From Podospora anserina (Eukaryota), in the NCBI GenBank assembly GCA_017654855.1, contig CM030334.1, positions 1,612,001 to 1,676,000 on the forward strand: a DNA stretch of 64,000 nt, in the 5' to 3' direction. Shown here in pieces: positions 8,488-57,326 of this stretch. Made by a program: the position numbers and the translations under genes. Under the pieces are notes generated by a model. The model was not told the origin of the DNA and searched no databases. It worked only from the letters and a program-made list of their open reading frames with translations. The first letter of the stretch is position 1; each line of letters opens with the position of its first letter.

Positions 8488-10838
8488 GAGGGTAGTAAGG
8501 ACAAGGGTGAGGAGGATTATTGGACAGATGATTCGGAAGAGGAAATGATACCTTGAGCGAAAAAGAGAAGAAGCGGATAGGGGGGAATTAAAAATATCGG
8601 GACATGATTACGGACATGATGAAACCCACTTTTTAGAAGTTTTCTTTTTTTTTTCTTTTTGAGAGAGAGATGGAGAGGAAATTTTATGTTTACCCACCAC
8701 TACCATTACACTTTGCACACACATTCCCGAGCCTAATAGGTTGAATGAGAGGTAGCGGTAATTCTTTTTTTCTTTAGGTATGAGGCTAGAAGGAGGAGGA
8801 GAGCGATGGATGGATTGATGGATGGTGGTCATTTGATAGATTGGGATGGTTTTTTCTTGGGGGGATAGTTTGGAATTTTGGTAGGGGAGGGTGGTATAAC
8901 TTTTTGTAGTGTAGGTAGAGGAAATAAAGAGCGAAGGTGGGGTAGATAGGATGATGTTTTGGTTGGTGATGAGTGTGATGTGATGTGATTCGTGACTCGA
9001 CATGGAATTCGTTCGTCAAGTTGACCACAACAAGGGAAAAGATGCATCAACCTTTTGTTGGAGAGATGGCATTTTGTTTTGTTTTTTTCAAACCTTGATC
9101 GGGAGGCTTGGATAGATAAGAGTTAGGCAGAGAGGGTGATCCTGAGCGGAGATTTCATATTGGGCCTATTTTCTTCTACAGATTTACTGAGACTTTGAAC
9201 CACCTTGGTGAGCGATGTTCTTCTCCATCTCTTCCACCAGGGCATGGGGAGGTTCGTCGTTGAGGGGGTGATGGCTTGTTCGATAAGGGCGTATTTCGCC
9301 TTCGAATTAGCCTTCTTTCTTCCCAACGCTTTGGGCAGAACAATGATGTTTGTAACTAAGTTTCAGACCGACGTGTTGGTGGACAGCCCCTGGTGAGGGA
9401 AGAGATAGGTGTCTTTGTAGTTGTTGGGTAACATTTGCCTATCTAGCTAGGCAAAAGGGCTTAAAGCCAGACCGGGGAGATGGATGAATAGTGGAAATAG
9501 ATGGGAGAAGAAGAAAAAAACATACAACACCGAGGATTCCCCAGTGGTCACCCACCTGAGTACTGATTCGGCCCTTCAGCTATTTGACTCGGGCAGAGCG
9601 GACGGGATGCCGTATTTTTAGCTGGGTATGGTCGTATGTGATTGTAGGAGGGAGAAATGCACATCATAGGTAGTAAAAAAGAATTCTGCTGTACAAACTG
9701 TCGTCTTGTTCCCCCCCTCCCCACATCCACATGTTTTCCCGTCTTGATGAGTTATGCATATGTTTTTTTTTTATCTCAATGAGTTTTATGCTAGGCCGCC
9801 TATCCCAAATTACACCACTATCCCCTCCCCATCCCTTCGCTATTCCCGTTTACTTTGATGAAGAAACTAGAGCGTTGTGTATGATGATGATGTAGGGGGT
9901 ATCAACATAAGAAAACAAAAAAAAAACACAAAAAGCCAACCAGAGTCGAGATAGGTAATGATAAACTTCCTCTAACCACATCACCCACCCATCCATCCCT
10001 TTGAAAGAATAAAAGAAAAAAAAATACATGCCTCATAAGAGATAAATCATCGCACCAAAAGAAGTCTAGCTTGAGCAATACAAACAAACAAGCAAACGCT
10101 ACAAAGATTAAAAAAATAAAGAACAACGATTTCCCTCCCCATTGGTATCTGCCTCTTCTTCTGTCTGGTGTAAAACTCGCGAGGAAAAAAAAAAAGAATC
10201 TATCTAGCCCGCCCACCCCCCATCAATGGCTGATATGCATGATTAAACGCCAAGAAGAAGAAAAATAGAGCAGAGGGGTGAAAATGATAAAAACAATACG
10301 ACCAACAAAAACAATGAATCCGCTTGTAAAACGGAATGTGTGTGCCTCCCACCCCATCAATCAACCCAGCCCCGCCGACCCAATCGCTATGCTTGTTATG
10401 CAGTGTCTTCGTGTGCTGGTGTTGTCGTTGATGCCCAGTCCGCCCCCTTTGGTTTCCCACATCTGCGATGCACCGGAATGAAAAGAGTGAGCAGAGAGGG
10501 TATTGAGAATCACAGCATAACCCCCAAACTCCAAAGCAAAAAAAACCCTGGTTCCCGATTAACCCGCCTTGTACGATGTTGAGGAAAAGCGCAGTGATGA
10601 CAATGCTGACAGCAATCATGATGGATGATATAAATGCCCCCGAAACGTGAGAAAACTGCCGTCCGTGAGCCTTGCGCCTGTGCCATGATGCCATCCATCT
10701 TCATCCAAGTCGTCATGTGCGCCGATGAAGTAAAGGAATGCTGCAAAAACCCGAGAGAAGGAAAAGGGAACGGTGAAAAACCATTGCGCCTGAAAATGCA
10801 AAATCAAGCCATCGCCATCAATCACCCCCAAGTCTCCT

Positions 10839-13800
10839 CTATTTAAAGAGACTTCTCAAATCTTGCAACCTCTGCCTCGCCGCATCACCCTGGCTTCTCA
10901 CGCCCTCGGCCTCAGCACGGTCCATGCTCAAGCTGGCCAGCTGCTTCTTTTTCTCCTGCAGCGCAATCATCTTCTCCTCAAAGCTGCCGCTCATGATATA
11001 GCGCACCGTCCTCACAGGCCTCTTCTGGCCCAGACGATGCACACGGTCGACGGCCTGAGCCTCGGCGGCAGGATTGAACTGAGGCTCCATGACAAAGACA
11101 CTGTTGCCAGCTGTCAGGTTGAGGCCCATACCCCCCGCCATGATGCTGACAAGAATGACTTGTACATTGGGATCATCGCGGAACGCCTCCATGGCTTGGT
11201 TGCGAGCGTTGCGAGTCATCTTTCCGTCAAGACGGGAGTGGGTGATACCGGCGTCGTCGAGAGCGATCTCAATGAGATCAAGATGAGAAGTCCAGCCGGA
11301 GAAGACGACAGACTTGTAAGGTGGCTCGTCCGGATTGGCTTCACTCCGGGCCTTGTTGGCTAGAAGCTCTTCGACCAAAGCCCGAGTCTTTGTGTGAGGC
11401 CCAGTATACCGATCATCAGGAATGATTTTGCCAGCCCGAGTCTTCGTCTGGCGGGTCTCGTGCTCAACATCGGCTTTGCTTCGGCGGAGTTCAACGCAGT
11501 GAGCCTTTTGAGCAAAGGCGCATGTAGGGCAGCCCTGATGCATATCGCCATTGCCGTGCTGGTGCACGAACCTGATGCAGGTTGGGCAGTAGACGTGGAA
11601 GCACTGCGCCATGTAGCCCAAGACGTCGTTGTTCTGATCAAACTCTGGGTCGTCGACCTCGATGGCCCCAAGCTTGTTGTTGCACTTGATGCAGAAATCA
11701 CTGCTGCCCTCCTGCATCAAGTAGTACATCTCATAGGCCTTCTTCTCAGTCAGGGCCGGTTTCCCGTCGTCGTCCTCGCTATCCAAATCGATGGGGGCAT
11801 CTGCCGACAAGCCTTGGATTTCTTGAAAATCATCGTCATTCAGCAGATCCTTGCCATGCGCGCAGATCAAACGAAGTTGAAGAATAGACCGCAGAACGTG
11901 AATCATGGTCTTGCCACCCATAATGCGGGTCTGGCCGGTGCCCTGGCCCGTCAAGACCTGAACACGCTCCTCGGCCATCTTTTTGAACAGGTCATAGACC
12001 TTGCGCTCCTCGGAGGAGAACTCGAGGCGAATAACCTCGTCGGTGCGCTCCGGGAGTTCGATCTTGTCCTTGAGACGGCGGATGGTAATGGTGTCAATCA
12101 AAACCCGAAGTTTGGGCACAATGTCCGGATCAGCAGCCTTGAAGGGAGCAATGATGTACTGGATAAACTTGCTCCTGTCGTCGAAGGGCTTCAGGCGCAA
12201 GAATGCCAAAAGGGAGGCGAGATCTTCGAGCTTGTTTTGAACTGGTGTTCCGGTCACGGCCCAACGGCGGTTAGCCTGTAGTCGGCAGATCGACTTGAAC
12301 GACAGCGTGTTTTGCTCGCGAATTGTATGGGCTTCGTCGAGAACGATGCGGAACCAGGCAATTTCCTCCAAGGGGTAGAGGCCCGGCTTTTTCTTGAGAC
12401 GTGCGTTGAGCTCGCTTGTGACGGATCCGTAAGTTGTGATCACCAGATCGTACCTGGCCAGCTGGGCAGAGTCCTTGATACGGTTGGCGCCGTGATAGAT
12501 GTAGTAGTTCAGCTTTCCAGGTTCGATATGCTGCTTGATCTGCTCCTCCCAGTTGGTGATTGTGCTCAGCGGGCACACCAGCAAAGTGGCCTTCACATTC
12601 CGGCGAATTTGAGACAGGGGCAAAACCTGCGCGCGGGGGGCTTCATGGCTCTTCTGTGGCCTCTGATTCTGGACGACGGGCTGGAGGGGCTCACGTTGTG
12701 ACCAGGCCTGCGCCTCGTCCAGAGTCTTGGCCAAGAGAGACAGAATGCTGAGCGTCTTGCCGAGGCCCATCATATCGGCAAGGATGCCGCCAAGAGTCGA
12801 AGGGGGCGGTTCCATCACCTCCTGGTTGGTGACCACATTGTAGTAGACCGTGGTGCCGAACTGATTTGTCCTGCGCTTCCATGTTGATGTGACAGGAGCC
12901 TTGCTATCAGCGTCTGGCAATTGCTCAGACTCCCGAGAAGACATGAAGAACAGAGCTTGCTTCTGGTGCTTCAGCAGCGGTGTTAAAACAGAGGGAGGAG
13001 GATCCAACTCCGGCAGCTCGTCCGACTTGGGGAGGGAGTCGAAAACACCCAGGACCTCGGACCGAATCTCTTCTACCGACTTGATCATGGGCGGAGCCTG
13101 ATACTGGACGACATTGTTGACGCGGGCAAGGGAAGGCAGCTGCGGCCGGTTCTCCTTGGCCAGAGGGTTGAAGACTTTAACGCCGGACTCGACTCGCGGC
13201 GGACTAAGAAGATTAATGTTCTTCCGCTGCAACAGTTTACCCACTCTATCAGCAAAGGAGCGAAGACCATAAATCATCAACTCAAGCTTGAATTGGGTGG
13301 ACACCTGCTGCCCAACCTCTTCGCCGGGATTCTTGCGTCGGACGGGGATTCTGCAGTCAGTGCGTGTCCCAAAGGTTCCAGCCATGTCCATGAGAGGAGC
13401 AAGAACGCTGGCCGTCTTGGGATCAACCAAGCCAATGCAGCGCTTTTGCCAATCATGGGCATAAATCTTGGTGGTTGGATCGCCCGGGGTTCTCTTGAGC
13501 AGAATCTTGACTTGAGGCCAAAAAGCAGGACCGCCCATAGAGATCATGTTAGGCTTCGGGGCTGGGATCATGTGGCCTTTGATGAAGGCGCCCTCAACCA
13601 TTCCAAAACAGACCTCCTCCTGTTGGGGACTGCGGGGAATGATTTCGACGTCGGTGTCATCGGTCAAGTCAATTGTAGCGCCGGGGACCGGGGCCACAGA
13701 TGACTGTGAGGGTCCATCGGATCGGTCTTTGATGTGCTGAGCCAGGATGCCGCTGCTGGGTGAGAAGAAAATACTATTTGCAGGCAGCGAAGGATCATTC

Positions 13801-43106: not shown

Positions 43107-46100
43107 TCACTCCCCACCCCCAAAAACCTCATCAATCCTCCTCTTCCTATCCCAAACAACCTTATCATCACTCTTCCTCCTGAAATACAGAATCCGATGC
43201 TGCGGAATAAACTCCTCATCCGTCTGCTCAGTCTTCCAGTCATCGAGTTCCTTCTCCTGCGCCCCCAAGAACCGATCCTCATACCCCACCACAAAATCCC
43301 CCGACTCCATCCCCGGATCCCACCTCAACCGGTTCATCACATCAATCGCGCTCCTCAGCTTCCCCTCTCTCGTCACAATAACATACTCCTTCTTCTTTCC
43401 CTTCTTCTTCCTCCCCTTCTTCTCAACCTCATAATCCTCCTCGCCGTCATCCCCCCCCTCTTCCAATTCCTCCTCACCATCCTCCTCCTCTTCCGTCTCC
43501 TCCTCCCCGGCGTTCCCCTCCCCCCACTCCCTCACATCCAACACCAACTCCGGAAGCGAGGTCTGGTTAACCAGAGAGGCAGACATCCACCGATTCTGCG
43601 GATTAAAATACTTCTCATCCCCCCTGATCTGCCCCTCAAACCTCGGCAGCACACCCCGCAACTGCCCCAGCGCGTTCAGCAGCTCGCTCTTCCCCAAGCC
43701 CTCCGACGCCTTGTCCAGTCCGATGAGATAACACCCCCTGTACGACCCGCCATCCTCTGTCAGATCAGCCGCCTCGACAAACCTCGCTGGCCAGATCCTC
43801 GCGTGGAGGGAGGAACACTTCCTTCCTATGTCTACCAGTAAAAGCGCACAGCGGGACTCGAACCACCCGAGAAAAGAGGCTCCTTTTGTGGGCGACAAGC
43901 CCCAGTAGGAGAGATCGAGCTTGATATAGGTTTTGAACTGTGTTAAAAACGTTGTTGCGGGAGCCGAGAGAAAGGATGACCAGGATGGGGAGGAAGAAAG
44001 GGCGGAAGCGGCAAGGGAGAATTCCCTTTGGAGGGTCAGGACGGAGGGGAGGGTGGCGGCGGAGGCGGTGTTAAGGCCGGGAGGGAAGTACCCCAGGATG
44101 GCGAGGGGTTCGCGGTAGGAGCGTGTGTATTGCGGTACTGAGGTGTGAAAGCTTGGGTCGAAGACTAGATTGTTGGCAAAGTCAAAGGCGGAGTAATGGG
44201 TGAAGAAAGAGGTGATCAAATCCTCGACGGAAGGTTTGGATTTGGCAAGAAGCTTCTGCACGCGAACGAGGAGGATGGCGACTTGGATTCCCGATAGGTA
44301 CCCAAAGCGGGCGGAGTAGACACCACGGGATCTAGCCCAGGTTTTGATGAAGCGGTGGGCTAGGCGGAAAGAGACAAGATCAGGGAGGGAACGGCGGAGG
44401 TAATCAATGTCGCGGATGGCTTTGAGCTTGTTGAGGGTCTGCGGGGCGAGGGACCAGACGGGATCTTTGGCTGGGAGCCGGAGGACGTTGGGCCACTGTT
44501 GAGCAACGGAGGCGGCCGGGCAGTATTGGAGGTCCATTCTGACGCCTTGGACTTCGAGCTCGAGCATGGTGCCTGTGTTGGCTTTGACTCGGCGGAGAAT
44601 GCGGACACCCTGGGTGGCGGCTTTGCGGAGGGATGAGGAGGCAACGGAGAAGAAGGTGTTGGAGCTGAAGGGGCCGATGCAGCAGACGTCGATGTCGGAT
44701 GAGGTTGTCCATACTCCGAGAGCGTATGAGCCCACGGGAACGACGACTACAGAAGATTGGAGTCTGGCGGCAGCGGGGGTCTTAGTGGTGGCGTCGAGAA
44801 GGAGAGTTTTGAGCAGCTCAAAGGCCTCTCTTCTCTGGGCAGCTTCCTCCTCGCCGGGGGTGACATTCAGCTCGGAGAGACAAGCCTTGATACCGCCAGC
44901 CCCCGAGAGTGCCTTTGGCGCCTTCTCAAGATGAGCAGGCACAACAAGCGGGTTTTCTGGCTCCTGTTCCTGTTCCATTTCCTCTTTCTCGTCATCTCCA
45001 AACCCTCCAATGCTGAGCACAGCCCGGATCCCCCAGTGGTCACTGGCGAAGGACTCCTCGACAGCATCTCCAACATGGCCCTTTTCCTGACCAAACATGT
45101 TGAACTCCTTCACATCGAGAAAATCCTCGCCGCGAACAAGAATCCGGTCATATCGCTGTGGCCAGATATTTCCACCACTCAAAGTCACCGCAACACCATT
45201 GACAGGCGGATCCCATGTTGCACCACCATCCTTGTCCTCAGCAGTAACCTCCCAGGCATCCACCAAGCCGGCGTCCTTGAAAATAGTGTCCAATCCTTTC
45301 CACTGCTCAACCGTAAGGTCCGAAACATTCTTCTTCTCCAGCGCCTCCTGAATGGCCTCTTTCGAAGTAGCAATATTCCAATCCCCAGCCAGCACCCAAG
45401 GACACCCCCCATAATTCTCCTCCAAATACCCAATCAACCTCTTGATATCCCCCTTCCTCGATGCCACCGCCCCATCAGTAAGTCCATGACTGAGATGAAC
45501 CACTGCCAGCACAACCGGCTTGAACTCATCCCCCTGCCACTTTCCCACATGTCGAAACCTAGCCACCAAAGCACCCTTGTGCTTCCTCTGGAAAGAAACA
45601 GATTCCCAGTCAAAGGCGACCTTGCTCAAGACAACCATATTGAGAAAATTCGGCAGCGGCCCCATACCCGGCTGATCAGGCGGTCCGTGAGAGCAATACG
45701 GATACCGATCCGAGACTCTCTCGTCACTGAGCAGAAACGACAGGAACCCATCCGTGACCTCCTGCAAGACCAGCGCGTCCGCGTCGGCCTTGTCGTCGAG
45801 AATGTTGTTCACAAGGAGGGGATACCGGTCCTCTTTTTGTGGGTACTCAAACTCAGCGAGAACGTTATAACTCGCCACCGTCAACATCTTTCTCCCTTGC
45901 CCTTCGTCGCTGTCATCTCGATCATAGTCCCCCTCCTGAGCAACCCCCCAAATCCGCATCTCCTCATCCCAGTACACCGTCCTCCCGCTCATCAGCTCAT
46001 CTCTATACCCCTTCTCTTCCCCCGTCTCTCCCAAAAACCCCTGATCAAACCCCCTCGTCTCTTCCAAAACCGTCACCTTCCCATCATGCACCCCCACCGT

Positions 46101-46667
46101 CCCCCAAAGTCTCATCTTCCCATTTTCCCTCCTCAAAATCACCAGTTCTTCCACTCTGAAATAACACCCCGACATCAGACCCAACTTTCCCATCAAATTC
46201 TCCCACTCCTTCCCCGCTACCTCGCCCGCAGCCTGCCCCATGGTCAAATGCATCTTAAAGGGTCGGTCATTCTTCCCCTCTACCCCCCGTTTCTTAAATC
46301 CACTGACAAGATCATGAACAAGGTCTCTGAGCTGTTCACGCTGGTCTTGGTAGGGGGAAGTGAGGAAACAGACACTTTCGTTGCGGCGGGGAAAGTGTCC
46401 TGGCTGAGTGAGTGCAATCGTAAATGGGTCAGGGGTTGTTTTCCGGGTGGAGAGGATTGAGGAAATGATGTGAGAAGCGGCGGGGAGGGAGGAAGGGGGG
46501 CAGAAGGGGTAAATGAGGTTGACGTGGGGTGGCCATTTGTGGGAGGCGGCGTCGTAGAGGGAGCGGATGCGGTTAAGGGTTGGCCATTGGGACTCGTAGG
46601 GGAGGATGGCGAGGGCTGTGTCGTATGAGTTGAATGAGGAGTTGAATGAGGGTTCGTCGGTCGCCAT
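43107..46667 (-). CDS. Multidomain RNA-processing protein: 2H phosphoesterase + EEP phosphoesterase + poly(A)-polymerase-like nucleotidyltransferase + MJ1316 (DUF504) domain
   Basis: 2H: WPPHVNLIYPF and MHLTMG. EEP: SYNVL, LQEV, GDWN, RYDRIL, SDH. NTase: GSYALG..SDID..MDLQY, FGYLSG. MJ1316: DVMNRLRWDP..VGYEDRF..FIPQHRILYF..VWDRKRRID. Confidence 0.92.
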   Translation of the reverse strand: MATDEPSFNSSFNSYDTALAILPYESQWPTLNRIRSLYDAASHKWPPHVNLIYPFCPPSSLPAASHIISSILSTRKTTPDPFTIALTQPGHFPRRNESVCFLTSPYQDQREQLRDLVHDLVSGFKKRGVEGKNDRPFKMHLTMGQAAGEVAGKEWENLMGKLGLMSGCYFRVEELVILRRENGKMRLWGTVGVHDGKVTVLEETRGFDQGFLGETGEEKGYRDELMSGRTVYWDEEMRIWGVAQEGDYDRDDSDEGQGRKMLTVASYNVLAEFEYPQKEDRYPLLVNNILDDKADADALVLQEVTDGFLSFLLSDERVSDRYPYCSHGPPDQPGMGPLPNFLNMVVLSKVAFDWESVSFQRKHKGALVARFRHVGKWQGDEFKPVVLAVVHLSHGLTDGAVASRKGDIKRLIGYLEENYGGCPWVLAGDWNIATSKEAIQEALEKKNVSDLTVEQWKGLDTIFKDAGLVDAWEVTAEDKDGGATWDPPVNGVAVTLSGGNIWPQRYDRILVRGEDFLDVKEFNMFGQEKGHVGDAVEESFASDHWGIRAVLSIGGFGDDEKEEMEQEQEPENPLVVPAHLEKAPKALSGAGGIKACLSELNVTPGEEEAAQRREAFELLKTLLLDATTKTPAAARLQSSVVVVPVGSYALGVWTTSSDIDVCCIGPFSSNTFFSVASSSLRKAATQGVRILRRVKANTGTMLELEVQGVRMDLQYCPAASVAQQWPNVLRLPAKDPVWSLAPQTLNKLKAIRDIDYLRRSLPDLVSFRLAHRFIKTWARSRGVYSARFGYLSGIQVAILLVRVQKLLAKSKPSVEDLITSFFTHYSAFDFANNLVFDPSFHTSVPQYTRSYREPLAILGYFPPGLNTASAATLPSVLTLQREFSLAASALSSSPSWSSFLSAPATTFLTQFKTYIKLDLSYWGLSPTKGASFLGWFESRCALLLVDIGRKCSSLHARIWPARFVEAADLTEDGGSYRGCYLIGLDKASEGLGKSELLNALGQLRGVLPRFEGQIRGDEKYFNPQNRWMSASLVNQTSLPELVLDVREWGEGNAGEEETEEEEDGEEELEEGGDDGEEDYEVEKKGRKKKGKKKEYVIVTREGKLRSAIDVMNRLRWDPGMESGDFVVGYEDRFLGAQEKELDDWKTEQTDEEFIPQHRILYFRRKSDDKVVWDRKRRIDEVFGGGE

Positions 46668-47942
46668 GGCTGTTGTTGGCGACTAAAACTTGATAGAGAT
46701 TTATCGAGGTTGTAAAAGGGGGGTATAAGTGGTGTGAAAGTGAAGCTATTCGCAGTTGTCAACTGTGTCGTGTCGATCGTGAAATAGATCAGTGTGTCGC
46801 CCTGTTACACTGCGATGAAATAAATCGATATCGAATCTGATAGCAACTCCAACACGAACCCAGATCCAAGGACCGCTCAGTCTTATACATGACCTCACAT
46901 CTCACCATACCCAACGACGCATTCCCACAGCATCAATGACTGCTTCCCCGCATTGGCGGCGCCCAGCTCGCCAATTCCCACCGCTTAAGCCGCTTTTGGG
47001 GGCCATCGGAGCCCGCTAACGCAGGTACGACCACTAAAGAGACCCTGGAATCACTCCGGTGAGTCACTGGCCGGTGTTTACTCGGTAGAACGGCATACTT
47101 CTTGCAGGTCGCGAGAAGGAACGAGGTTTGCTGTGCGAAAATGCCTTGCCGTGATGAATTGTAGAAGACGGTCTACTCGATTCGGCGATATGTGCAAGTG
47201 ATAGACCTATACTCGCTTCTTCTGAAAATGAAAAAGACAATGGTTGAAATTGGCAGCGAGTCTGGAAGTCATCGTGGCGCAGCACCTCTGCCGGACAGCT
47301 CCAAGCCCGCGATGTCAGGTTGTGAGAGGCTGATGGTCGAACCGGCTGTGCGGTTGGTGTCGCTGCCAATAAGCAATCCGCATTCTGATGAAAAAGGAAG
47401 GATGGTGTTGAAGAGAGAGGCCGCCGGTTTGTGGGGTGGAAGAGTGTATTGGGTGGGGTTGTTCTCGAAAAAGTGTTAGTGCATTGCTGCAAACAGTTGC
47501 GGGAACACTAACATTTTGTGGAGCACATCAACCTCCAGGGTCCGGTGGCTTGCTTCCCGAACACCAACTTCCTCTCAACCTCACTCACCACCCAAAACTC
47601 ACTTGAATCTGGCTCTTTGGGTTGTGAGGTGTAAAATGCATATCGTCTCTGCGGCGCTCGAAATGCCGCCTATCATGATCGAGCAGCATCTCATCGGAGT
47701 GGCTGCCTGTCTGCCAGCCCAATGACAGCGATATGTTGTTGTTCGAGTTCATCAGCCGCAGTTTCTCTTGAATATGGTGGGCATCTTCAACGGTTCATGT
47801 TGGCCCCTTCTACCTAATATCCAGCCTTATATTTGAAGCCATTCTCATGTTCGCGAAGTGAAGCAAATGTCGAAAGTGTTTTAAAGCACCATCAACCTCA
47901 CCCTCCCATGTCTTCTTGATCCAGGGGTAATCCTCCCTCAAA

Positions 47943-48621
47943 ATGACACCCGAAAGATTCTACATCCCCCGAGCCTTCAACTGGATCCTCCCAGCCCAAG
48001 TCTTGCTAGCCGCAGTAGCCATCTACTCCTCCACCTACGTCTTCAACCTAGCCACAACCCCAACAATCCTCACCATCATCGCCGTAAGTAGTTCCCTCCT
48101 CATATCCCTAATATATCACTCACTAACCCCCCCAGACCAGCATCCACCTCCTCCTAGCCCTCTCCCTCTGCCTCACCCATTCCATCCCAACCCGAAACAC
48201 CCACCAAATATTCACCACCCCCATCCTCCTCCTCCTCCTCCTCCTCCTCCTCGGCACCGGCCTCTGGGCCGCCAGCCTCTGCTACCACGCCAAACAAGTC
48301 GACCTCCTCCTCACCTACCCACTCCTCTCCCAAACCACCACCCAACCCCTCACCCCAACCTGGTCCAAAATCGGCCTCGCAACCACCGCCCTAAACCTCT
48401 TTCTCGATCTCGCCCTCCTCCTCCTACTCACCCTCTCCATCATCCTCGACCAAAACCCATCACCACCACCACCACCCTTACCAACAACCATCAGTTACCC
48501 CCAACAACAGTCCCACTACACCACCCACCACCAGTTCACCACACCAACCTCCCCTATCCCTCCCGTCCCCCCTATCCCAAGCACCTACTACTCCACCGCC
48601 ATCCCCGAATCACGCATTTAA
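47943..48621 (+). CDS. Small four-transmembrane (MARVEL-like) protein, 208 aa; intron 48084-48135
   Basis: Removing GTAAGT..CTAAC..CAG joins hydrophobic exon 1 to a frame with three more TM segments (TSIHLLLALSLCL, ILLLLLLLLLGTGLWAASL, IGLATTALNLFLDLALLLLLTLSII) ending in TAA at 48619-48621. Confidence 0.72.
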
Positions 48622-49518
48622 AGATAGCTACCATTCCTCTCAAGAAAATAAGTACTCCTCTCAAAATGATATACACGCCTTTCAACATAGCCAGCACCCT
48701 CTTATGCCTAAAGATAATCAGCACCCCTTCAAAACCCACCAACGCATCCAATACCTCTAAAACAAAACCATACAAATAACACAAATACGCATCATACACA
48801 TCATACACATACACACCACCATCAACCAAGTAAGGGCTGGTAAAACACAAACTACACGCTTCATCCACACCCCTACTAACTACATCGCTACATCATCTAC
48901 ATTCCTCGCACTAATTCCCCCCAACAACTTGACCCCCTGATCAACACAAACCAACCAGTATGATTTCATACCTCCCCCATGTTACAGAAAGAAAGAAAAA
49001 ACCGCTGGGTTGAAACAAGACTGCCGAGCAAAAGTGTCGTCTGCTGTTGTGTAATGCCCTCCTTTTCGAATCAGACATGCCTCATTCATGATTCGATTTG
49101 CCATTCACGTCCGCATCCTCTCCAGCACTGGATCCTGCACCTGTTTAAGAACTTGTTCCAGAACTTGCTCCGGAACTTGCTCCAGAACTTGCTCCCCCAT
49201 TTACTCCATCACTTCCTCCCCCATTTGCTCCAGCACCAGCTCCTGGAGCCAGCGTATCTTCACGCGTCCCGAACGTCACGAACGTCGACGAGCTGGCCCA
49301 AGACACCGGCCGCCGCAGTGGGGGCAAAGACGCCGGCCGCCGTGCTACTGCCTCCACAGCATTTCTTAGAGATCGTACAATTCGCCAATCCTCCTCCGTC
49401 ATCTCGCCTCTGCTACGCCCAACAGAGCGAGGCGGGGCCCCAGGCGTCCGGGACCTCATTGAGCTGGGCAACACCTTCGGCTGCACTGGTGTTGTTCCCG
49501 CACCCGCTCCAGCATTTG

Positions 49519-49686
49519 CTCCAGAACCGGATCCCGCACCCCCTCCAGCACCAGATCCCGCACCCCCTCCAGAACTGGATCCCTAACCCCCTCCAGAACC
49601 AGATCCCTCACCCCCTCCAGTACCAGATCCCTCACCCCCTCCAGTACCAGATCCCTCACCTCCTCCAGCACTAGATCCCGCATCCA
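49519..49686. repeat. 24-bp tandem repeat x7 (GGGEGSGT-type peptide on the minus strand)
   Basis: ctccag(a/c/t)accagatccc(t/g)cacccc units; one unit carries the GAG>TAG change. Confidence 0.9.
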
Positions 49687-51155
49687 CCTCGGAACCCGAA
49701 GCCACACCAGCTCCCGCACCAGCTCCCTCGCCTCTGGTACGCCTGATATAGCGAGGCGGGGCCCCAGGCGCCCGGGACCTCATTACCCTGGGCAAAACTT
49801 CTGGCTGCACTCCAGCATTTGCTACAGAACTGGATCCCGCACCCGCTCCAGCACCCCCGCCAGAACCCGAAGCCACATCAGCTCTCGCACCACCGCTTGG
49901 AACTAGCGTACCGTCACGCGTCCGGAACATCATGTTGCTAGACAATACTTCCATTGGTGTTATTTCCGCACCCGCTTTAGCACTTGCTCCAGAACTGGAT
50001 CCCTCACCCCCTCCAGCACTGGATCCCTCACCGGCTCCCGCACCAGCTAGCGTACCGTCACACCTCCGGAACCTCGTCGAACTGGGCCAAACCCACGGCC
50101 GCAGTGGATCAGAACAAGCTCTTCGAGCCAGCAAATCTCGCGGATCCTCCTCCGCCAGCTCGCCAGTCCTGATATTGATATAATGAAGCACGTTCTCGGG
50201 CATTTGAACCGCCACCCAACCGGGCAACTCGTCCGGCTGCAGCGGTGGTCTCGCAGCCGCTCCCGGAGCTAGCTAATCTCGCGGATCCTCCACCGTCACC
50301 TCGCCCGTGCCGGTGTTGATATATTTAGGCACATTTCCAGCCGTCCATATCTTCACCCAACCGGGGCAATGATCCGGTATCATCTGTAATGCCTCCACAA
50401 AATGTGCTGGAGCCCGCCAAGCAGCTCGCGGGTCCTCCGGCGTCTCCTCGCCGCCTGTGCTGGTGTTGACATCGCGAGGCGCGTTTCCAACCCTCTTCAA
50501 ACTCAGCAAATTGCGCAAATCCTCCGGCGGCACTGGTGGTGTTCCCCTACCCCCCTCTCTTTTCAGCGGATCCTCCCACGACCTCTCGCCTGTGATCTTG
50601 TTGATGTAGTAAGGAATGTGGTCACGCGTCCGCAACTTCACCCAACCGTGGCAATGTTCCGGCGTCAGTATTTCTCCCCCAGCACCTCTTGGAATGCGAT
50701 CACCTCGCGGGTCCAGCCGCGTCCTTCTGGGTGCGCTTCTGGAGAAGTCGGCATAGTAATGTCTGCCGGCAGAGTCGCAAAATACGTCCCAGTCAGGGGG
50801 GAAATCACGACGTCCCGGATGCCGCCATACGTTCTCGAGCTGTTCCTGTGTTCCTCGCGGATCATCATAGGTCTCCTTCCCGGTCTTGAGGTTGATAAAA
50901 ACTTTACCGCTGTCCTTCCGTCTACATACCCACTCAGGGGGGAGCGGGACTTCTCGTAATTCTTCGTCCTCCTCAAAAGAATCTTCCTCAGAAGGATTAT
51001 CGTTTTGAGCACGCTGAGCAGCTGTTGTAGATGACTCCCCTCGCTGGGGGCCTTCTCCTATATCGTAACGGATTCGTTTGCGTAGTGCCTTTGGGTCTCG
51101 TGCGCGTATTCCTCTGATTTCTGTATTTGGGTCTCGTAGGCGTATTCTTCTGACA

Positions 51156-51335
51156 TCTGCCTTTGGGACGACTTCTGCCTTTGCGACGACTTCTGCCTTT
51201 GAGACGACTTCTGCCTTTGGGGCAACTTCTGCCTCTGGGACGGTTTCTGCCTCTGGGATGACTTCTGCCTTTGGGGCGACTTCTGCCTCTGGGACGGTTT
51301 CTGCCTTTGGGTCGACTTCTGCCTCTGGGTCGACT
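51156..51335. repeat. 18-bp tandem repeat x10 (PKAEVV/PEAETV peptide on the minus strand)
   Basis: tctgcct(t/c)tgg...gact units read directly. Confidence 0.92.
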
Positions 51336-52140
51336 TCTTTGTCTTTTCCTTTCAGTGCTCGTTTACCCTCTGGCGTGAGCTTGTCCAGCTCCGTCTCCTC
51401 GACTCCTCCGCTTTCCGCCTTTGGGGTTGCTGGCTCGGGTGGTGCTGGTAGAGCGCAGCAGCACATATAACGCCCGAAAGACCTCTAGCCACATTCCAGC
51501 TCATCACGTCTCACAGCCTCCCAGAAACGGACGCAGGATATAAGAAATAGCAAAAAACCCAAGCCACCCAAGATGGAGGATACCACCGTTGTGACCACGA
51601 GCGTTGTGTTCGGGTCCCTTTTGTCAACGGGTGCCATGGTGGTGATGCTGAATGGTGTCTGCGTGTTGATGTCGGTAAATCTACTGGTAACGAACGAACA
51701 ATCGCGGGCTGACTGATGATACTGGCGATAGACTGATGACACTGGTGATGGGAGAGGGAGAGGGAGAGGGGAAGAGGGAAAAACCCAGATGTCGTTGAAC
51801 CATAAGACCTCTGGAAGGCAGGTTCCTTCCCCGAAACTTGGTCGCGGCAGGGGCCCGTCAACTGCCCCGAGAGTGAGCCCGAAAGGGAAGAAACCTAGGC
51901 TCTCGCAACGAAAAGTCCCCATAGAAGTGGAAGGATCATGGTGAAAAAGCCCCCGCGCAGGAAAGTGCCCTCGAACACCAGAAAGAAACATCAGTCACAA
52001 ACTCGGGCACCCTCCCCACAAAATAATTGGGACAGCAAAAGTAGGTTTGACCTATGCCATATTCGTGTCAATCATTTGTGATGAGAGAGTGCTCAGGGTA
52101 TCCATTCATCAATCTCGGCTCGTATCAAAAGTCTCCCCGT

Positions 52141-54617
52141 TCAGTAAGACGACATTGCCATCTCGCTGCCTTGGCGCTGCTGTTGTTGCTGCTGCTCCCA
52201 CGTTTTCCTGCACACCTCCTTCATGAGCCTCTTGGGGGCCATGCGCCCAGTCATCAGCTCAAAGGCCTCGATGGCCATTTCCGCGACCACCTCCAACCCG
52301 TCGACGACCACCCATGATGGCGACATGTGGTCTCTGACAGCATGCATCTGGGCTACCAATGGAGTTACCAGAGGCTCGTAGGCCAACTAGAGCAGAAAAG
52401 TCAGCAAAATACCTAGATATCACAAAAGCTGGCTCATCTGATGCTTACCTCGACCACGACGCCACCAGTCGGACTCCTAAGCCAGTCCAGAGGCATCTCA
52501 AAATCAGCAGGCGCGGACCCATTCGCGCTGGTAGCTGGAACACAGGAGATCACCATCGTGGGAGGTTGGTAGGCCCGAGGCCATGGCTCTGACAGCGATG
52601 GAAGGACTCGGCAGATCTCATGTGACCCTCCTTTTGTGCCCACAATTCCCTGTGTTGCCGCCCAGTCGTTGAAGTGCTGTGCAACTTGGTTGGCATTTGG
52701 TGCTGTTCGGTTGTAGATAAAGATATTACGGCATCCCAGCTGAATCAGCGCATAGATGGCAGCTCTGGCCATGCCACCGGCGCCAACAACTAACCCGGTA
52801 GTTTTAGATGGCTGGACATAATTCCGTGGACTGATAGCCCTCCGAAGGCATGTCAGAATGGAGCTCCAGTCGGTATTATCACCAAAGAACTCGCGTGCAG
52901 GCCCGGCCTTGTTTCGAGAGTTGGCATGGTCGAGAATGGCGCTCGTCTTTCCCCTGAGTGGAAGCAGTACGTTGACTGCTCCTATCGCGGTGGCATGGTG
53001 GCTCTTGACTTTGAGATGGGGCATGATGGCAACCTTGAAAGGGGCTGTCAAGCTGGCCCCCCCAAAAGAGTCTGATAGGCAGATCTGGTTCAGCCTGTCG
53101 ATCGTAGAGCACGTTACATCCTGGAAAGTGTGTGGCATCCCGCAGAAGTCGTAGGCCGCACTATGCATGGCCGGTGATAGCGAATATGATACGTGGGAGC
53201 CGAGCACGTAAAACTGCAGCGGATCCAGAAGAAACTGCCGGAAAAGCAACTCATACGAGTGATAGTAGGTAGAGACCGTGGCAAGGTGGTCTCGCTCATT
53301 CTCCATATCTGGATGCTTCACGGGATTCAAAATCCTGCTTTGCAGTGGTGTCCGAACGCCGAGGACGGAAAAGTCGTAGGCCACAAGTGGTGGCTTTGGG
53401 TCTGGTACTTCTTGCTGTAGCCTCCTCTTGAAGCCTTCCAGAAGCTCAGCCGGGCTGTCATTTGTGCAGAAGCGGACCATCCGCACCACCTCGCACCCTA
53501 GCCCCTGAGCCCTCTTGTAGTTTTCCATCTGTCTGTCGTCCTGCCAAGCAAGGGCCCCAAAGCCCATGTACCAGAAGTTCCCAATGATCTTTGACCTTCC
53601 TCTGTGCCGTAGTACCCGGTTCACAAACTCGTCATGGCGCTGGAGATCTAGGCTGATATAGTCAACGCCGAGACGGAGGCCCAGCTCCAACAAGTCAGCA
53701 TCCATGGCGTCTTTTTCTTCCGGCGTTCGTCTTCTTTCCCCTCGTGGGTTTTCTTCCACATGGTAGATGATTGGAATGCCGAGTTTTCTCCTTATCAAGG
53801 CGATTTGTCTCGCAATAACGTTCATCAGATCGTCTGGCCAGTGATCGATGATGAACTCGACGCAATCTCCTCTCGCCTCAAAATCCTCCCATTCCAGATC
53901 CATGTCCATCAAATAGGATAGTCTGAGTCGCAACGCGTAGGAATATGACCGGAATTCCGGTGGCACTGAGCTCACAGAAAATGGGCTCTCCAACCAGGCC
54001 TTGGTGGCGCCCCTCCCTGTGACGATGTCGAGAAATCTGGTAAAATCTTCCCTGGCACTTAAAAGCTTCGATGGCCCAGACTGTCGGCCATTCAGTGGTG
54101 TGCTGGCCCCCGAGCTCGTGCCCGAAATGTGACCCCCAGATTTGTTTGGGGGATCGTAGAGGTTGTAGTACTCAAAATTGGAGCAGCTTCTATGCCGCTC
54201 GTCGGCTTTCAGGAGCTGTTGAAGGTCGGCAGCGTCCAAATGCCGGGCAATTTGCTCCTTTTCGCGGTGAATGTAGACGACTGGGTTGGTGCTGGAGTAC
54301 TGTCTTAGTGCGTCCTGTGCCTCTCCCGTAAGGCTGCTCATGCCACATTCGATGATACACCCGGTCCTGTTGCTGTCCAACATTCGTTTGAACACCTCGA
54401 TATCCTGCCTGGCAAAGGCCTCCCTGCCATGTCGGGCGAGATACTCCCCACGTGATAATCCCGTGGTTTTCTCAAAGTAGTGCTCCTCTGTGACTAGTCG
54501 TCGGCGTAGGTGAAGAGCTCCCATGAATCCCAAGGTCCGCTTCCCTGCCCCGCGGCATCCGACGAGGACAATGGATGAGTTTGCCTCGAAGGCCCGTTCA
54601 TTCTTTGGTGGAGCCAT
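52141..54617 (-). CDS. QutR/QA-1S/GaaX-family repressor (shikimate kinase-like + DHQase-like + shikimate dehydrogenase-like domains); intron 52387-52448
   Basis: GCRGAGKRTLG; SLSPAMH, TAPFK, IGAVN, GDNTD, GAGGMARA, YNRT; last exon LAYEP..DGLEV..FELMTG; lacks the AROM DHQ synthase and EPSP synthase domains. Confidence 0.9.
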
Positions 54618-55730
54618 GGTGTTGTCCGTGGCGTCGACACGGCTGTTGAAATGGTCCTCAGCTCGGTGGTCTCTTGTGGTATCGATATGGCACCGTGAGC
54701 TGGACCATTGGTGCGTGATCAGGGACGGGATGAAAAGTCGAGAAGGGGCTTATGATGCTAGTATCTTGATTTGTGAGACTGAATAATAATGAGTGAGGGC
54801 ATCTACCTATCAGATAATCAGACACAATTCAGGCCGCAGATGAAGGCCCGACTCCCAGTCGCCATCTTGGACCGTCGAAATGTCGGCAAATCGGTCGGGA
54901 CTGGCAGGCGGGAAAATGTAGACCCTGCATTGGCCCGGGCAGTGAAGCCACCCCCGCAACGATGCTGCGACAGCGGGACTCGGGTGCCGGGTCGTCGGTG
55001 TTTAGTGGGTCACTGCCCCAGCAATGCCCCAGGAAACGCGCCAGTGTTTGCGGGGAACATGGCAGTGGCTACGGGAGATGCAAAGCACAAATTCAGTTTG
55101 AAATAATGAAGCACATGATGTCCAATGGGAGATCATGGAACAGATGCAACGTATGAATGCTACGAATGGCAGCTGTCATGATACCTCTCGGCCGAGATGG
55201 CAAGAAACCTCCACTGGGAACCATGAAGAAGGAGGGTGCAGCAGGCTTAGGTTGAAGGCCATCCATCACCTGCCCTGGCATATCGGGCCCTGCCGGAGGT
55301 TAAACTCCACTCGAGGTTCACGTCATGTTGAATAATGAACTTGTAACAGATGTCCTGAAATGTGTATAATGAATCAATGCCAAAATATCTAGATTACCTT
55401 GGGTAGACATGGAGACCAAGACGTGCCGTGTGATCCCCCCGACACGCCCCGCCTCCGTAGACGTTGAATTTTTAGGGGCGCTTCCGGGGCACTGGTTCGG
55501 GCCGGGTGCTAAGAGCGCCGGAAGCGTGGGCCCGAGCCCCCACGATTTCCCTGCAAATCAAAGTCCCCGCGTTCGGCACCGCGCTTTTCTCCTGCCAACT
55601 CTAACACACCTGTTTTCCACCGAAATACGGCATTGGCTGGCTCTGCTCTGCTGCTCCCTCCCTTCCTTGTGGATAAAGTATTTCTTCCGACCAAGTCTAT
55701 GGGCCCCGCCCGTTCCGAAGCCCCAGGAAA

Positions 55731-56319
55731 ATGGAGTTCTCCGTCGAGGAGCGCGCTCCCTTAGCCACCAACACCAACCCCGTCTTCGGTGGTGCTACCG
55801 CTTCCGGCCCTCCGCCTCCCCCAGCCAGTGACACCGGCGCCGATGCCGGGAGTGAGGCTCCGGCCAATCCCCGCAAGAGGAAGAAGGCCTCCCGTGCGTA
55901 AGTGTCTCACTCTCTCTCCACCACTGACGTGTCACTCATACCCATCTCATAGTTGTGACTTCTGCCATGTCAACCATCAGCCATGTGACAATGGCAAGCC
56001 AAAATGCAGTGTCTGTACCAAACATAACAAGCCATGTTTATATCTCCGTCCAACCAAGAGACGTGGTCCCCAAAAAGGCTACCGTACTGCTCTCAACACC
56101 TACAAGGAGAGTGCCGCCGCATGGGGAGCTGTACTGGACGCCATCCCTGGACTTGACGCCCTGATAGAAGGCCATCTACGAGGAGCCGCCGGGAAGAGCA
56201 TGATAACCGCTATCAAAGATTCCAATCAGCAGGAAGCCTTGATCAGCAAGTGGCAGCAGAGCTCAGTCTTCAAAGCCTTCTTTGGTCACAACGGCCCAGC
56301 ACCCACTCCACCCACAGAG

Positions 56320-56350
<31 letters not shown>

Positions 56351-56874
56351 ACAATAACCAGACCACATTAGATTCCAAAAACAACATTCTACCATCACAA
56401 GAAGTCGACGAAGAAGACGCACCAGAAGAACCACCCGCCCGGCCACCACCAGCAAAGAGAGCCACACTCCAACCACCCGCCCCAAGAAGCCAATCAGCAT
56501 CAAGCTACGTGGTACCAGAACAACCAAGAACTCCAATACAATTCCCCCAACTGGGCTCTCCCTTCCAACCAAAAGATTCCGCCAGCTTATCAGACATTGT
56601 AGCAAAAGATGCTGCCCAGGCGTATGTCCTTGTTTCTTCCTTTTTTTCAATTCGCAACTTCTAACAGTCTAAACACAGAGCCATGAGGACCTCACAAACC
56701 CTCGCCTCTCTAGGCTTCGCCCCAGACGAAACAATAGCAGATTTCTACAGCATGGGCTCCAACCCAGAACCAATAGCCGACTCCAACGACCCAGACTTTG
56801 ACCCGTCGCTCGGCAGCGAGTCGGAGCAGAGGGCTTATTACGAGTTGCTGATGGGGAGGATGTTTCCTGGGTGA
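55731..56874 (+). CDS. Zn(II)2Cys6 transcription factor, short (~343 aa), QutA/QA-1F-like N-terminus; introns 55898-55952 and 56622-56678
   Basis: Spliced RKRKKASRA-CDFCHVNHQPCDNGKPKCSVCTKHNKPC-LY..KRRGP; poly-Asn linker; short acidic C-terminus. Confidence 0.88.
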
Positions 56875-57326
56875 TGTCTTCTTTTGCTCGAAAGGCTATG
56901 AAGTCACGTGTATTATATTTATCATATTACCAAGCATTATGTGTTGTCATATATGAAGGATGAGGTGAGTCAACCGTCTCAGATCAAACAATGCCAACTG
57001 GAAACTAACCTCAGCCCAAGAAAGTGGATGACGATCTCAACTGGGTGAAATTTGGAGGGTTGTGGGAGACGTAAAGTTTTGTACAAGATGAGAAATTAGA
57101 TACCCGCCTTTTTGTGCAACCAAATCTGCATATCAAGTTTGACGGTGTACCTATTATAGCAATGACTCAGGACTGAGATATTCTTGCAAGCCCATCTCAC
57201 TAAAATCCCAGGAAATATGATGATGCTTTCTTTATCCGCAATCTGATGGAAACTCGATGCACCCAAGATTAAAATGATCAAGTCTCATCACATTAGGTTC
57301 TGGATATACTTGTATTTTGCATGCTA

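Follow-up and report, generated by a model that had tools for sequence, protein, structure and literature searches.

Three in-frame TAG codons in an otherwise open WW-domain membrane-protein frame of Podospora anserina: a possible transcribed pseudogene, with stop-correcting editing as an alternative

An open frame with three internal TAG codons

The window, by which we mean the whole 64-kb stretch of Podospora anserina DNA that was analysed, contains on its (-) strand a single frame (49145..51637) that runs from an ATG at 51637 to a TAA at 49145-49147 and comprises 830 codons plus the terminal stop. An earlier note on this DNA had described a continuous frame between these points whose only lesions are three TAG codons, with no frameshift, and translation and stop counts bear this out: the internal stops are exactly three, all TAG, at codons 51, 455, and 685 (TAG1, TAG2, and TAG3), and the middle A of each corresponds to + strand positions 51486, 50274, and 49584. 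Their codon contexts are those that the note had given, namely TGTGGC-TAG-AGGTCT, CGAGAT-TAG-CTAGCT, and GGGGGT-TAG-GGATCC. Against the three internal stops of this frame (frame 0), the remaining sense frames have 25 and 33 and the antisense frames 13-21, and shuffled controls of the frame (n=1000) average 33.3 stops with a minimum of 19. The 830-codon frame is open to an extent far outside what chance would give. Neither the 229 codons that follow TAG2 nor the 145 that follow TAG3 hold any extra frame-0 stop, and this is the only stop-read-as-sense frame in the 64-kb window with several large pieces (169, 403, 229, and 145 codons) without a long antisense ORF.

The three stops share a type of placement: all fall in linkers or low-complexity sequence outside the folded units, as judged from the sequence and an AlphaFold2 model. 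TAG1 (51485..51487, (-) strand) lies between a membrane helix and a Cys cluster (MCCC), TAG2 (50273..50275, (-) strand) in the linker between the fourth and fifth WW-like units, and TAG3 (49583..49585, (-) strand) within a 24-nt Gly/Ser repeat array. That all three are TAG is by itself weak evidence for any special process, being only mildly improbable by chance, because 41% of the single-base routes from this frame's codons to a stop yield TAG and the probability of three out of three is ~0.07.

The predicted read-through product

If the stops were read as sense, the product would have a short N-terminus, a membrane helix, the Cys cluster, acidic EAEV repeats, WW units, and a Gly/Ala/Ser-rich tail with degenerate modules; it is thus predicted to be a single-pass membrane protein whose WW units comprise a good one and about four that are degenerate. 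The membrane segment claimed in the earlier note is apparent from hydropathy: a single helix is predicted at about residues 13-36 (51530..51601, (-) strand), with a short N-terminus carrying an NTT site ahead of it and basic residues behind it, and the best 19-residue Kyte-Doolittle window scores 2.37 at residues 18-36, with values of <=0.63 from residue 61 on. The acidic (P/K)EAEV-type repeats are encoded by 18-nt (54-nt) tandem repeats at 51152..51338, and the 24-nt tandem array that contains TAG3 (49519..49729; both on the (-) strand) has 8.8 copies encoding GGGEGSGT-type units.

The label "WW-repeat" holds in part. With the Pfam WW model (PF00397), the whole protein scores 59.7 bits against a cut-off of 26.9, thereby passing the gathering threshold, and unit 3 (residues 330-357; 35.4 bits) is the sole unit to pass it when scored alone. 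Units 1, 2, and 4 stay below the cut-off (19.8, 15.5, and 15.3 bits), and the same scan gave no match for unit 5 or for a further degenerate unit at 50426-50536. The five WW-like units lie on the (-) strand within 50132..50962, in order at 50852-50962, 50705-50815, 50558-50668, 50276-50383, and 50132-50242. A single-sequence AlphaFold2 model of residues 226-502 is of low confidence (mean pLDDT 50, pTM 0.33), and only its secondary-structure pattern was used; it places short beta-strand pairs or triplets at all five WW-like units, including unit 5 past TAG2.

Leader, start codon, and short products

The start ATG at 51637 has a better context (CACCACCATGG) than the in-frame ATG at 51991, up to which frame 0 stays open. 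The intervening leader (51638..51991, (-) strand), which has CT-rich tracts and is connected by RNA contigs with the upstream gene, is probably a 5' UTR or promoter. Comparison with ORFs of other contigs shows the leader and the N-terminal 50 codons to be the most conserved part of the locus: two of these ORFs (P0038 and P0040) have 0 differences in 168 codons, except for one 2-residue repeat gap in P0040, and two others (P0009 and P0039) have 1 difference within the 50 coding residues.

This conservation, together with the good start context, favors a reading that we regard as improbable overall, in which the short products are real or the ribosome passes the stops without editing. The 50-residue membrane peptide might itself be functional, the remainder being a long 3' UTR relic; an internal start at M58, the assumption behind the sister-species models and the ORF calls, might yield a 397-residue WW protein; or translational readthrough might occur at a low level, most plausibly at TAG2, where UAG is followed by CUAG. 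In animals and fungi, CUAG after a stop is known to make termination leaky; the next base is A at TAG1 and G at TAG3, and neither is a readthrough-type context. M58, for its part, has a poor start context, with T at -3, and sits downstream of an earlier ATG and ORF. Moreover, a 2.3-kb frame behind a 50-codon ORF needs a cause for staying open.

An unspliced transcript that retains the stops

The RNA sample consisted of assembled contigs from four runs of four studies, whose developmental stage is not on record and which keep the major variant only. The four runs were taken as RNA by their behavior: introns of neighboring genes are visible, an intergenic stretch is uncovered, and adapter sequence is present at the ends. 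In all four, the contigs pass TAG1 and TAG2 unspliced and with the genomic letter. Among the contig pieces listed, TAG3 is unchanged and unspliced in one run (X15), skipped in another (X20), and uncovered in the other two. The same contigs show the GT..AG introns of the neighbors, at 56621/56679 in 4/4 runs and at 48083/48136 and 52386/52449 in 3/4 each, and the only difference listed between them and the window across 12 kb is a C>G at 51845. Transcription of the gene gives an unspliced mRNA in which the TAGs persist, and splicing at TAG1 and TAG2 is absent; removal of the stops by splicing, which the earlier note had named as a result that would undo its proposal, is thus not what the RNA contigs show at these two sites in four runs or at TAG3 in one. 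In the RNA contigs examined, translation from the ATG at 51637 would end after 50 residues.

Contig depth at the locus is similar to that of the neighbors despite the stop at codon 51, depth in contigs being a poor measure. Gaps in contig cover, at 49527-49631 and 51232-51248, fall on tandem repeats. The skip in X20 (49537..49632, (-) strand) amounts to 96 nt, or four repeat units, stays in frame, and takes out TAG3; its ends are not splice-like (CA..CT on the + strand), and it reflects either a difference in repeat number or an artifact of the repeats.

Three deposited sister-species models (P0002, P0003, and P0004; sister-species locus tags QC761_304575 and QC762_304575) nevertheless evade the stops: they start past TAG1, omit TAG2 by way of a 63-nt "intron", and change frame in the tail. 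Taken as biology, this gene structure is very unlikely. The 63-nt stretch (50237..50299, (-) strand; GTGACG...CTGCAG), located by alignment with the models, does start with GT, end with AG, and have a length that is a multiple of 3. Yet the RNA contigs of all four runs are continuous through 50237-50299 and through TAG1 while showing the neighbors' introns, and GTGACG is at odds with the consensus usual for fungal 5' sites. The alternative tail frame is the high-GC3 frame, which is what an ab initio predictor would pick. In a weaker form of this explanation, a minor spliced isoform may lie below contig resolution. The post-TAG1 start, the 63-nt intron, and the tail frame change are annotation devices unsupported by the RNA contigs.

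Other haplotypes, distribution, and constraint

The stops are not private to this strain, another outcome that the earlier note had set against its proposal. In other haplotypes, the ORFs break off at matching places: 4/4 N-terminal ORFs stop at the place of TAG1 (...ELECG), 3/3 middle ORFs at that of TAG2 (...EDPRD; P0005, P0006, and P0007), and the one ORF reaching that far at the equivalent of TAG3 (...GGG; P0008). All four frame-0 segments are open in the other haplotypes too, and the segments seen have neither a frameshift nor a further lesion. These coincident ends also bear on whether the stops are sequencing or assembly errors in the window, an idea to which we give next to no credence and which we consider refuted: 20 of the 24 public runs listed, from 8 studies, contain 93-98% of the sampled words of 49000-52000, and the RNA contigs of four studies match the window at TAG1 and TAG2.

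The locus is otherwise unstable. The (P/K)EAEV-type repeats vary in copy number among haplotypes, the P. comata model has a rearranged N-terminus, and a copy of the WW3 region on another contig is riddled with C>T changes (26/26 differences).

Searches of 1.84 billion cluster representatives, along with word-index searches, found no orthologue beyond the Podospora anserina species complex. The cluster-representative search gave 31 matches at E<=0.001, of which about 20 are weaker (E 1e-9 to 1e-3) and cover short stretches; among the 10 looked up, the four that are named come from Salmo, Perkinsus (two), and Chrysotila/Pleurochrysis, and the best matches outside Podospora are generic WW proteins of Perkinsus and similar. 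In a tblastn search of the protein against the 64-kb window, the locus itself was the only match, and a literature search for Pa_3_4575 gave none. Judged by these searches, the locus appears to be a young gene limited to the species complex.

Signs of constraint are weak. The frame-0 GC3 of the four segments is 0.60, 0.53, 0.46, and 0.44; seven established genes in the window have 0.61-0.77. Among haplotypes, the protein differs before TAG2 at 3-7 of 282-287 non-repeat residues and, to a similar degree, after TAG2 at 1-2 of 110-121 residues; after TAG3, the one haplotype available has 4 differences in 96 residues. Because species of the complex are >98% identical in genic DNA, according to the passages available from PMC10936905, this amino acid divergence, a comparison of protein rather than DNA sequences, appears to be near the unconstrained expectation.

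Origin of the stops and the case for editing

RIP favors TAG and TAA. As a source of the stops, it is rejected for TAG2 and TAG3: the codon aligned with TAG2 in the paralogous unit 5 is TTG and the repeat consensus codon at the place of TAG3 is GAG, which imply transversions; the locus is also GC-rich (0.54-0.59). Neither codon is TGG, so the TGG ancestry implied in the earlier note finds no support for these two stops. However, non-TGG one-step origins have often been reported for known corrected stops, as described in part of PMC10776026.

Such correction was the earlier note's proposal. In this account, stop-correcting (PSC, "restorative") A-to-I editing in fruiting bodies, carried out by a tRNA-deaminase-derived activity of Sordariomycetes, would act at between one and three of the sites to turn UAG into UIG, which is decoded as UGG (Trp), such that mycelium would make the 50-residue membrane peptide and sexual tissue 454-, 684-, and 830-residue forms according to editing levels. 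We hold this to be possible, if short of an even chance. The stricter version, in which all three UAGs of one unspliced mRNA are edited in Podospora fruiting bodies to yield graded 454-, 684-, and 830-residue proteins as a three-step gated gene, is the more doubtful and on balance unlikely.

Several of the above observations suit editing. All three stops are TAG, lie in linkers, and escape splicing; their positions are common to all reachable haplotypes, with the three sister-species models avoiding TAG1 and TAG2; and no haplotype segment has a frameshift. The host also belongs to a favorable lineage: Podospora is in Sordariales with Neurospora and Sordaria, where such editing is documented (PMC7306014, in part), and a passage of bioRxiv 10.1101/2024.12.09.627484 has ADAT genes up-regulated in P. 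anserina sexual development, which together suggest that this host probably has an editing system. The profile of the locus further fits the PSC pseudogenes of F. graminearum, which, in the excerpted account of PMC10776026, include 43/71 with hypothetical proteins, 50/71 with disordered regions, and 16/71 abundant in all stages.

The sequence context claimed to favor editing stands only in part. Any TAG has U at -1 and G at +1, and in fungal editing only the -1 position is strongly biased, according to the part of PMC13431901 consulted. The favored pentamers, as quoted in a passage of bioRxiv 10.1101/059725, are UUAAG and UUAGG; TAG3 is UUAGG, a most-favored word, and TAG2 and TAG1 are UUAGC and CUAGA. 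In predicted folds, the A of TAG1 and of TAG3 sits in a 3-nt hairpin loop, but this context is rejected as evidence for editing because 6/11 control TAG triplets are placed likewise; TAG2 is predicted to be paired in 2/3 fold windows, which counts against editing there.

Other evidence also weighs against editing. The contigs of the four RNA runs from four studies, of unrecorded stage and with minority variants hidden, contain no A>G at the covered TAGs. A perithecial contig should show the edited letter, because PSC sites in F. graminearum perithecia are edited at a median level of 79% according to the relevant part of PMC10776026. The same part describes 65 F. graminearum PSC genes with one site and 6 with two, but none with three. 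Finally, the low GC3, orphan status, and near-neutral divergence suggest weak function. The literature searched contained no published Podospora editome or corrected-stop gene.

A transcribed relic as the preferred reading

We prefer, with a probability of roughly 0.45, to see the locus as a unitary pseudogene, left by the recent inactivation of a fast-evolving orphan gene and still transcribed, and we infer that its stops are not corrected. On this scenario, a young orphan gene of the complex would ancestrally have encoded a single-pass membrane WW protein. Nonsense mutation to TAG would have happened three times before the sampled haplotypes diverged, in at least two cases by transversion from a sense codon (TTG and GAG). 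Transcription would have persisted, with the unspliced mRNA retaining the TAGs, and the frame would still be intact solely through the short time since inactivation. Consistent with such a relic are the low GC3 of all four segments, the confinement of the gene to one species complex, the seemingly near-unconstrained divergence of its protein among haplotypes, and the instability of the locus, to which the skip in X20 may be added. It also fits that the RNA contigs of every run carry the genomic letter at TAG1 and TAG2, and chance makes three TAGs just mildly improbable.

The pseudogene reading has its own difficulties. Three nonsense codons with no frameshift, TAA, or TGA over 2.5 kb are unusual for neutral decay; going by assumed indel rates, we estimate that by the time neutral change had produced three nonsense hits, several indels that shift the frame should have accumulated, yet the other haplotypes likewise keep their four segments open. 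Each stop is the sole codon that fungal A-to-I editing can convert to Trp, each spares the folded units, and one has a most-favored pentamer. Nor would a relic be expected to retain a good start codon context or neighbor-like RNA depth, poor as contigs are for measuring the latter. There is also the resemblance to PUK1 of Fusarium graminearum, in which an annotated intron that concealed stops turned out to be unspliced and the stops edited, as given in excerpts of PMC7306014.

Were editing to occur, stop correction would be extended to Podospora, a genetic model in which crossing strains and replacing alleles are easy; if all three sites were edited, the number of corrected stops would exceed that of any of the 71 F. 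graminearum cases in the portion of PMC10776026 consulted. Editing here would also create a natural setting, with three sites, in which to ask whether the level at each stop in turn is adjusted so as to fix the proportions of the isoforms, and would bear on the dispute, visible in passages of PMC10776026 and PMC13431901, over whether stop-correcting editing is adaptive or merely harm-permitting. If the stops are unedited, the locus is an ordinary young pseudogene, and the lesson is a practical one that concerns the annotation of the sister species.

Comparison with known systems

With WW-domain proteins (PF00397), the predicted product shares a unit that passes the threshold alone and four more with the G-W-V...Y-I-N...G-E...E-D-P pattern; unlike in those proteins, most of its units are without the second Trp and below threshold. 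We found no named relative that combines a membrane anchor, WW units, and Gly/Ser repeats. Neurospora rfk-1 and Fusarium SKC1 are meiotic drivers in which stop-codon editing switches protein isoforms. The present locus is like them in that a small protein would become longer if its UAG were edited in sexual tissue, but it has no sequence relationship to them and no evidence of drive, and the change in length would be far larger and in three steps.

The other parallels lie with two kinds of pseudogene. Like the F. graminearum PSC pseudogenes typified by PUK1, the locus has in-frame TAGs in an otherwise intact, transcribed ORF (PMC10776026, PMC7306014), an annotated "intron" over a stop that is unspliced in RNA contigs (as for PUK1 in PMC7306014), a hypothetical product rich in disordered sequence, TAGs that can derive from non-Trp codons, and a Sordariomycete host, so far as the consulted parts of those reports describe them. 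It departs from them in that the RNA seen, in contigs of unrecorded stage, is unedited; in its number of sites, which is three where none of the 71 F. graminearum genes covered in that part of PMC10776026 has more than two; and in its confinement, as an orphan, to one species complex, along with its low GC3 and apparently near-neutral divergence. With unitary pseudogenes it shares multiple nonsense lesions, fast and seemingly weakly constrained evolution, repeat instability, and the retention of the lesions in RNA. Unlike an ordinary unitary pseudogene, however, it has neither a frameshift nor a non-TAG stop in 2.5 kb, carries the identical three lesions and no others in each haplotype seen, and has kept its start context and leader conserved.

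A WW-repeat frame interrupted only by TAG codons

The minus-strand frame from the ATG at 51637 to the TAA at 49145 comprises, by translation, 830 codons plus the terminator, with three internal stops that are all TAG: TAG1 at codon 51 (middle A at plus-strand position 51486), TAG2 at codon 455 (50274) and TAG3 at codon 685 (49584). Over 49145-51637 the other sense frames contain 25 and 33 stops and the antisense frames 13-21, and 1,000 shuffles of the frame give a mean of 33.3 stops and a minimum of 19; zero further stops occur in the 229 codons behind TAG2 and in the 145 behind TAG3. Thus, the whole length of this WW-gene frame codes for protein or did so until recently, which corroborates and strengthens the observation in the earlier note of a long frame with TAGs as its sole lesions. 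In a scan of the 64 kb with each stop codon in turn taken as sense, it was the sole multi-piece large frame (169/403/229/145 codons) not antisense to another long ORF. TAG makes up 41% of the single-base routes to a stop from this frame's codons (P for three of three of about 0.07), and the all-TAG pattern is only mildly unusual. As a control, a 635-codon frame at 10794-12698 (+), with two TAG stops only, lies antisense to an SNF2-type helicase gene; we take it to represent the usual openness of antisense frames.

The read-through product would begin with a short N-terminus bearing an NTT site and one strongly hydrophobic helix (best 19-residue hydropathy window 2.37, at residues 18-36, against at most 0.63 everywhere from residue 61 on), followed by basic residues, TAG1 and a Cys cluster. 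Next comes an acidic stretch of EAEV-type repeats, whose DNA is an 18/54-nt tandem array (51152-51338 (-)), and then a block of five WW-like units plus a degenerate one. The tail is rich in Gly, Ala and Ser; it contains the 24-nt repeats of 49519-49729 (-) as well as several short modules that recur. Pfam recovers WW alone from the whole product (59.7 bits; cut-off 26.9). Taken one by one, in order, the units score 19.8, 15.5 and 35.4 bits, nothing for the degenerate unit, 15.3 bits, and nothing for unit 5. Residues 226-502, modelled with AlphaFold2 from the single sequence at low confidence (mean pLDDT 50), show predicted short beta-strand pairs or triplets at all five WW-like units, unit 5 behind TAG2 included; in that model, TAG2 would fall in the linker joining units 4 and 5. 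The start context is strong at ATG 51637 (CACCACCATGG), and the first ATG past TAG1, M58, has T at its -3 position. That the locus serves to make short products, or relies on readthrough of its stops, is improbable.

Relatives and the sharing of the stops

Within a collection of 5.8 billion proteins, the only full-length relatives are those of a single cluster, made up of three Podospora proteins: QC761_304575 (P. bellae-mahoneyi), QC762_304575 (P. pseudocomata) and VBB77080 (P. comata). Residues 1-520, run with phmmer against 1.84 billion cluster representatives, gave 31 matches at E<=0.001, the strong ones being Podospora-like ORFs. Ten were looked up, four of them labelled (a Salmo low-complexity protein, a Perkinsus E3 ubiquitin ligase, a Perkinsus WW-domain protein and a Chrysotila/Pleurochrysis record); the remaining 20 or so are weak. 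The locus tags suggest the name Pa_3_4575 for the gene, which a full-text literature search did not match.

The stops are not private to this strain. These relatives are known as proteins, from which the presence of a stop can be read and not its identity as TAG, TAA or TGA. All four ORFs from other contigs that span the leader and the first 50 codons (P0009, P0038, P0039 and P0040) stop at ...ELECG, the place of TAG1, two of them deviating from the window at 4-5 residues. All three middle ORFs run from M58 to ...EDPRD, the place of TAG2; in P0006 the repeat number departs from that of the window, and P0007 carries altered repeats and, leaving the acidic repeats aside, nine substitutions. P0008 begins at the first Met behind TAG2 and terminates at ...GGG, where TAG3 stands, its repeat array being one unit shorter than in the window, and P0041 continues the tail in the same frame (92/96 residues identical). 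For each of P0007, P0008 and P0041 the record gives an 18,023-nt contig, which we take to be one and the same; the third middle ORF is P0005. The three sister-species models (P0002-P0004) all start beyond TAG1, drop an identical 21 codons around TAG2 as a 63-nt 'intron' (50237-50299 (-)) and leave the frame in the tail for one of higher GC3, the kind of frame that ab initio prediction favours. The chance that the stops are sequencing or assembly errors is negligible.

Transcripts across the locus

Four public runs from four studies (X15, X16, X18 and X20) were compared with 45000-57000 as assembled contigs, which keep the major variant and whose stage is not on record. GT..AG joints appear at 56621/56679 in all four and at 48083/48136 in three, a minus-strand intron at 52386/52449 in three, contig cover is nil or almost nil at 55025-56227, and some contig ends carry adapter sequence; thus, the four runs behave as RNA. 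The WW locus is covered over 48265-52386 at contig depths similar to its neighbours. TAG1 is spanned in every run (by a piece at 51248-52386 in three and at 51245-51670 in X20), as are TAG2 and the 63-nt 'intron' (pieces from 49631/49633 to 51208/51232), and the listed pieces show no gap from splicing at either stop. TAG3 is crossed unaltered by the X15 piece 48265-49606 and lies beyond the reach of the listed X16 and X18 pieces; X20 lacks it, skipping 96 nt at 49537-49632, which amount to four in-frame repeat units bounded by CA..CT and which we read as a repeat-number variant or repeat artefact and not an intron. None of the covered TAGs has a changed letter in these contig sets, in which minority variants are dropped. 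Therefore, the dominant mRNA form is unspliced and keeps the TAGs; removal of the stops by splicing, even in a minor form, is very unlikely.

The sole listed differing letter in the 12 kb is C>G at 51845, common to all four runs; it sits in the WW-gene leader (window C, RNA G on the plus strand) and is probably a strain difference. Three pieces carry two 'other letters', none listed away from a contig end, which we take to lie within the repeat 51209-51232.

The earlier note had proposed that the TAGs are corrected by A-to-I editing in fruiting bodies. Since such editing is reported to be restricted to sexual structures in fungi (PMC7306014), the unaltered letters in contigs lacking stage records and minority variants are no test of it. 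They still count somewhat against it, because the median editing of 79% reported for stops corrected in perithecia of F. graminearum (PMC10776026) would be visible in a perithecial sample.

Among the neighbours, the upstream gene (52434-54617 (-)) has Pfam SKI, DHquinase_I and shikimate dehydrogenase domains, an architecture which we take to resemble that of the quinate-pathway repressor. Its 62-nt intron (52387-52448 (-); RNA contigs in three of four runs) takes out the stop of the 727-codon ORF, so that the true C-terminus lies further downstream, and its contigs extend into the WW-gene leader. The loose end of the X20 contig at 51670 matches about 66 nt further upstream (to about 51737), near short direct repeats, and could reflect a short intron in the leader, a variant with a deletion, or an artefact of the repeats. 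In X15 only, 45 nt (46013-46057; ends TC..CG, not splice-like) are skipped within a 1186-codon gene with 2'-5' RNA ligase, phosphatase-like and poly(A) polymerase-like domains; the skip reflects either a length variant that keeps the frame or an artefact. A plus-strand transcript in 47570-49606 runs towards the WW-gene 3' end; it has a GT..AG intron (48084-48135), and its ORF 47943-48779 matches no Pfam family. Because RNA contigs across 48265-49606 bridge both 3' ends, a tail-to-tail overlap of the two transcripts is probable.

Origin of the stops and constraint on the frame

Unit 4 ends in ...GAGGATCCGCGAGAT-TAG-CTAGC where the paralogous unit 5 ends in ...GAGGATCCGCGAGAT-TTG-CTGGC, and the 24-nt repeat consensus has GAG at the position of TAG3; TAG1 has no paralogue for comparison. 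On the most economical reading, TAG2 would derive from TTG and TAG3 from GAG. Both changes would be transversions and hence neither TGG>TAG nor RIP-type transitions; given the paralogous TTG and consensus GAG, we reject the latter as the source of TAG2 and TAG3. Corrected TAGs in F. graminearum are reported to be mainly former TGG and 'often' other one-step codons (PMC10776026), so that the putative TTG and GAG ancestry is compatible with stop-correcting editing.

The GC3 of the four segments falls, in order, from 0.60 through 0.53 and 0.46 to 0.44; seven established genes within the window have 0.61-0.77. Compared with the window, other haplotypes show 3-7 differences over 282-287 non-repeat residues before TAG2, 1-2 over 110-121 residues after TAG2 and, in one haplotype, 4 over 96 residues after TAG3. 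[quoted passage not shown] Given such similarity, these rates, judged on protein alone, appear near the neutral expectation, and divergence behind the stops seems no higher than ahead of them. The locus is unstable, too: repeat numbers vary among haplotypes, and the P. comata model P0004 opens with MRSRTPGAPPRSVGRSRGEMTEEDWRI, identical to the tail module at 49380-49460 (-), before joining the pre-WW region, through either a rearrangement or a model artefact. P0010, a 79-residue ORF on another, 1,584-nt contig, reproduces the unit-3 region (50426-50665 (-)) in degenerate form; C>T alone accounts for 26 of its 26 differences, and it has the look of a duplicate mutated by RIP in a related genome.

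Relic or edited gene

We favor, at a probability of roughly 0.45, a transcribed relic, that is, a young pseudogene. To this point the orphan status, low GC3, near-neutral divergence and unstable repeats, together with the absence of the edited letter from four RNA sets and the weak significance of the all-TAG pattern. Stop-correcting A-to-I editing is a tentative yet substantial second possibility: every stop is of the sole editable kind, common to every haplotype, located in a linker and not removed by splicing, no frameshift or other lesion affects any segment in any haplotype, TAG3 forms a UUAGG word, and the case closely parallels PUK1. A literature search found no published Podospora editome.

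The mechanism itself has been described before, in Fusarium, Neurospora and Sordaria. As in the sister-species models of the WW gene, an intron is annotated in PUK1; it is reported to have proved unspliced, with its stops edited (PMC7306014). On the other hand, the 71 F. graminearum genes with a corrected premature stop include six with two sites and none with three (PMC10776026), whereas the WW gene has three TAGs. Thus, if edited, it would be a new, unusual three-site case of a known mechanism; otherwise, it is an ordinary young pseudogene.
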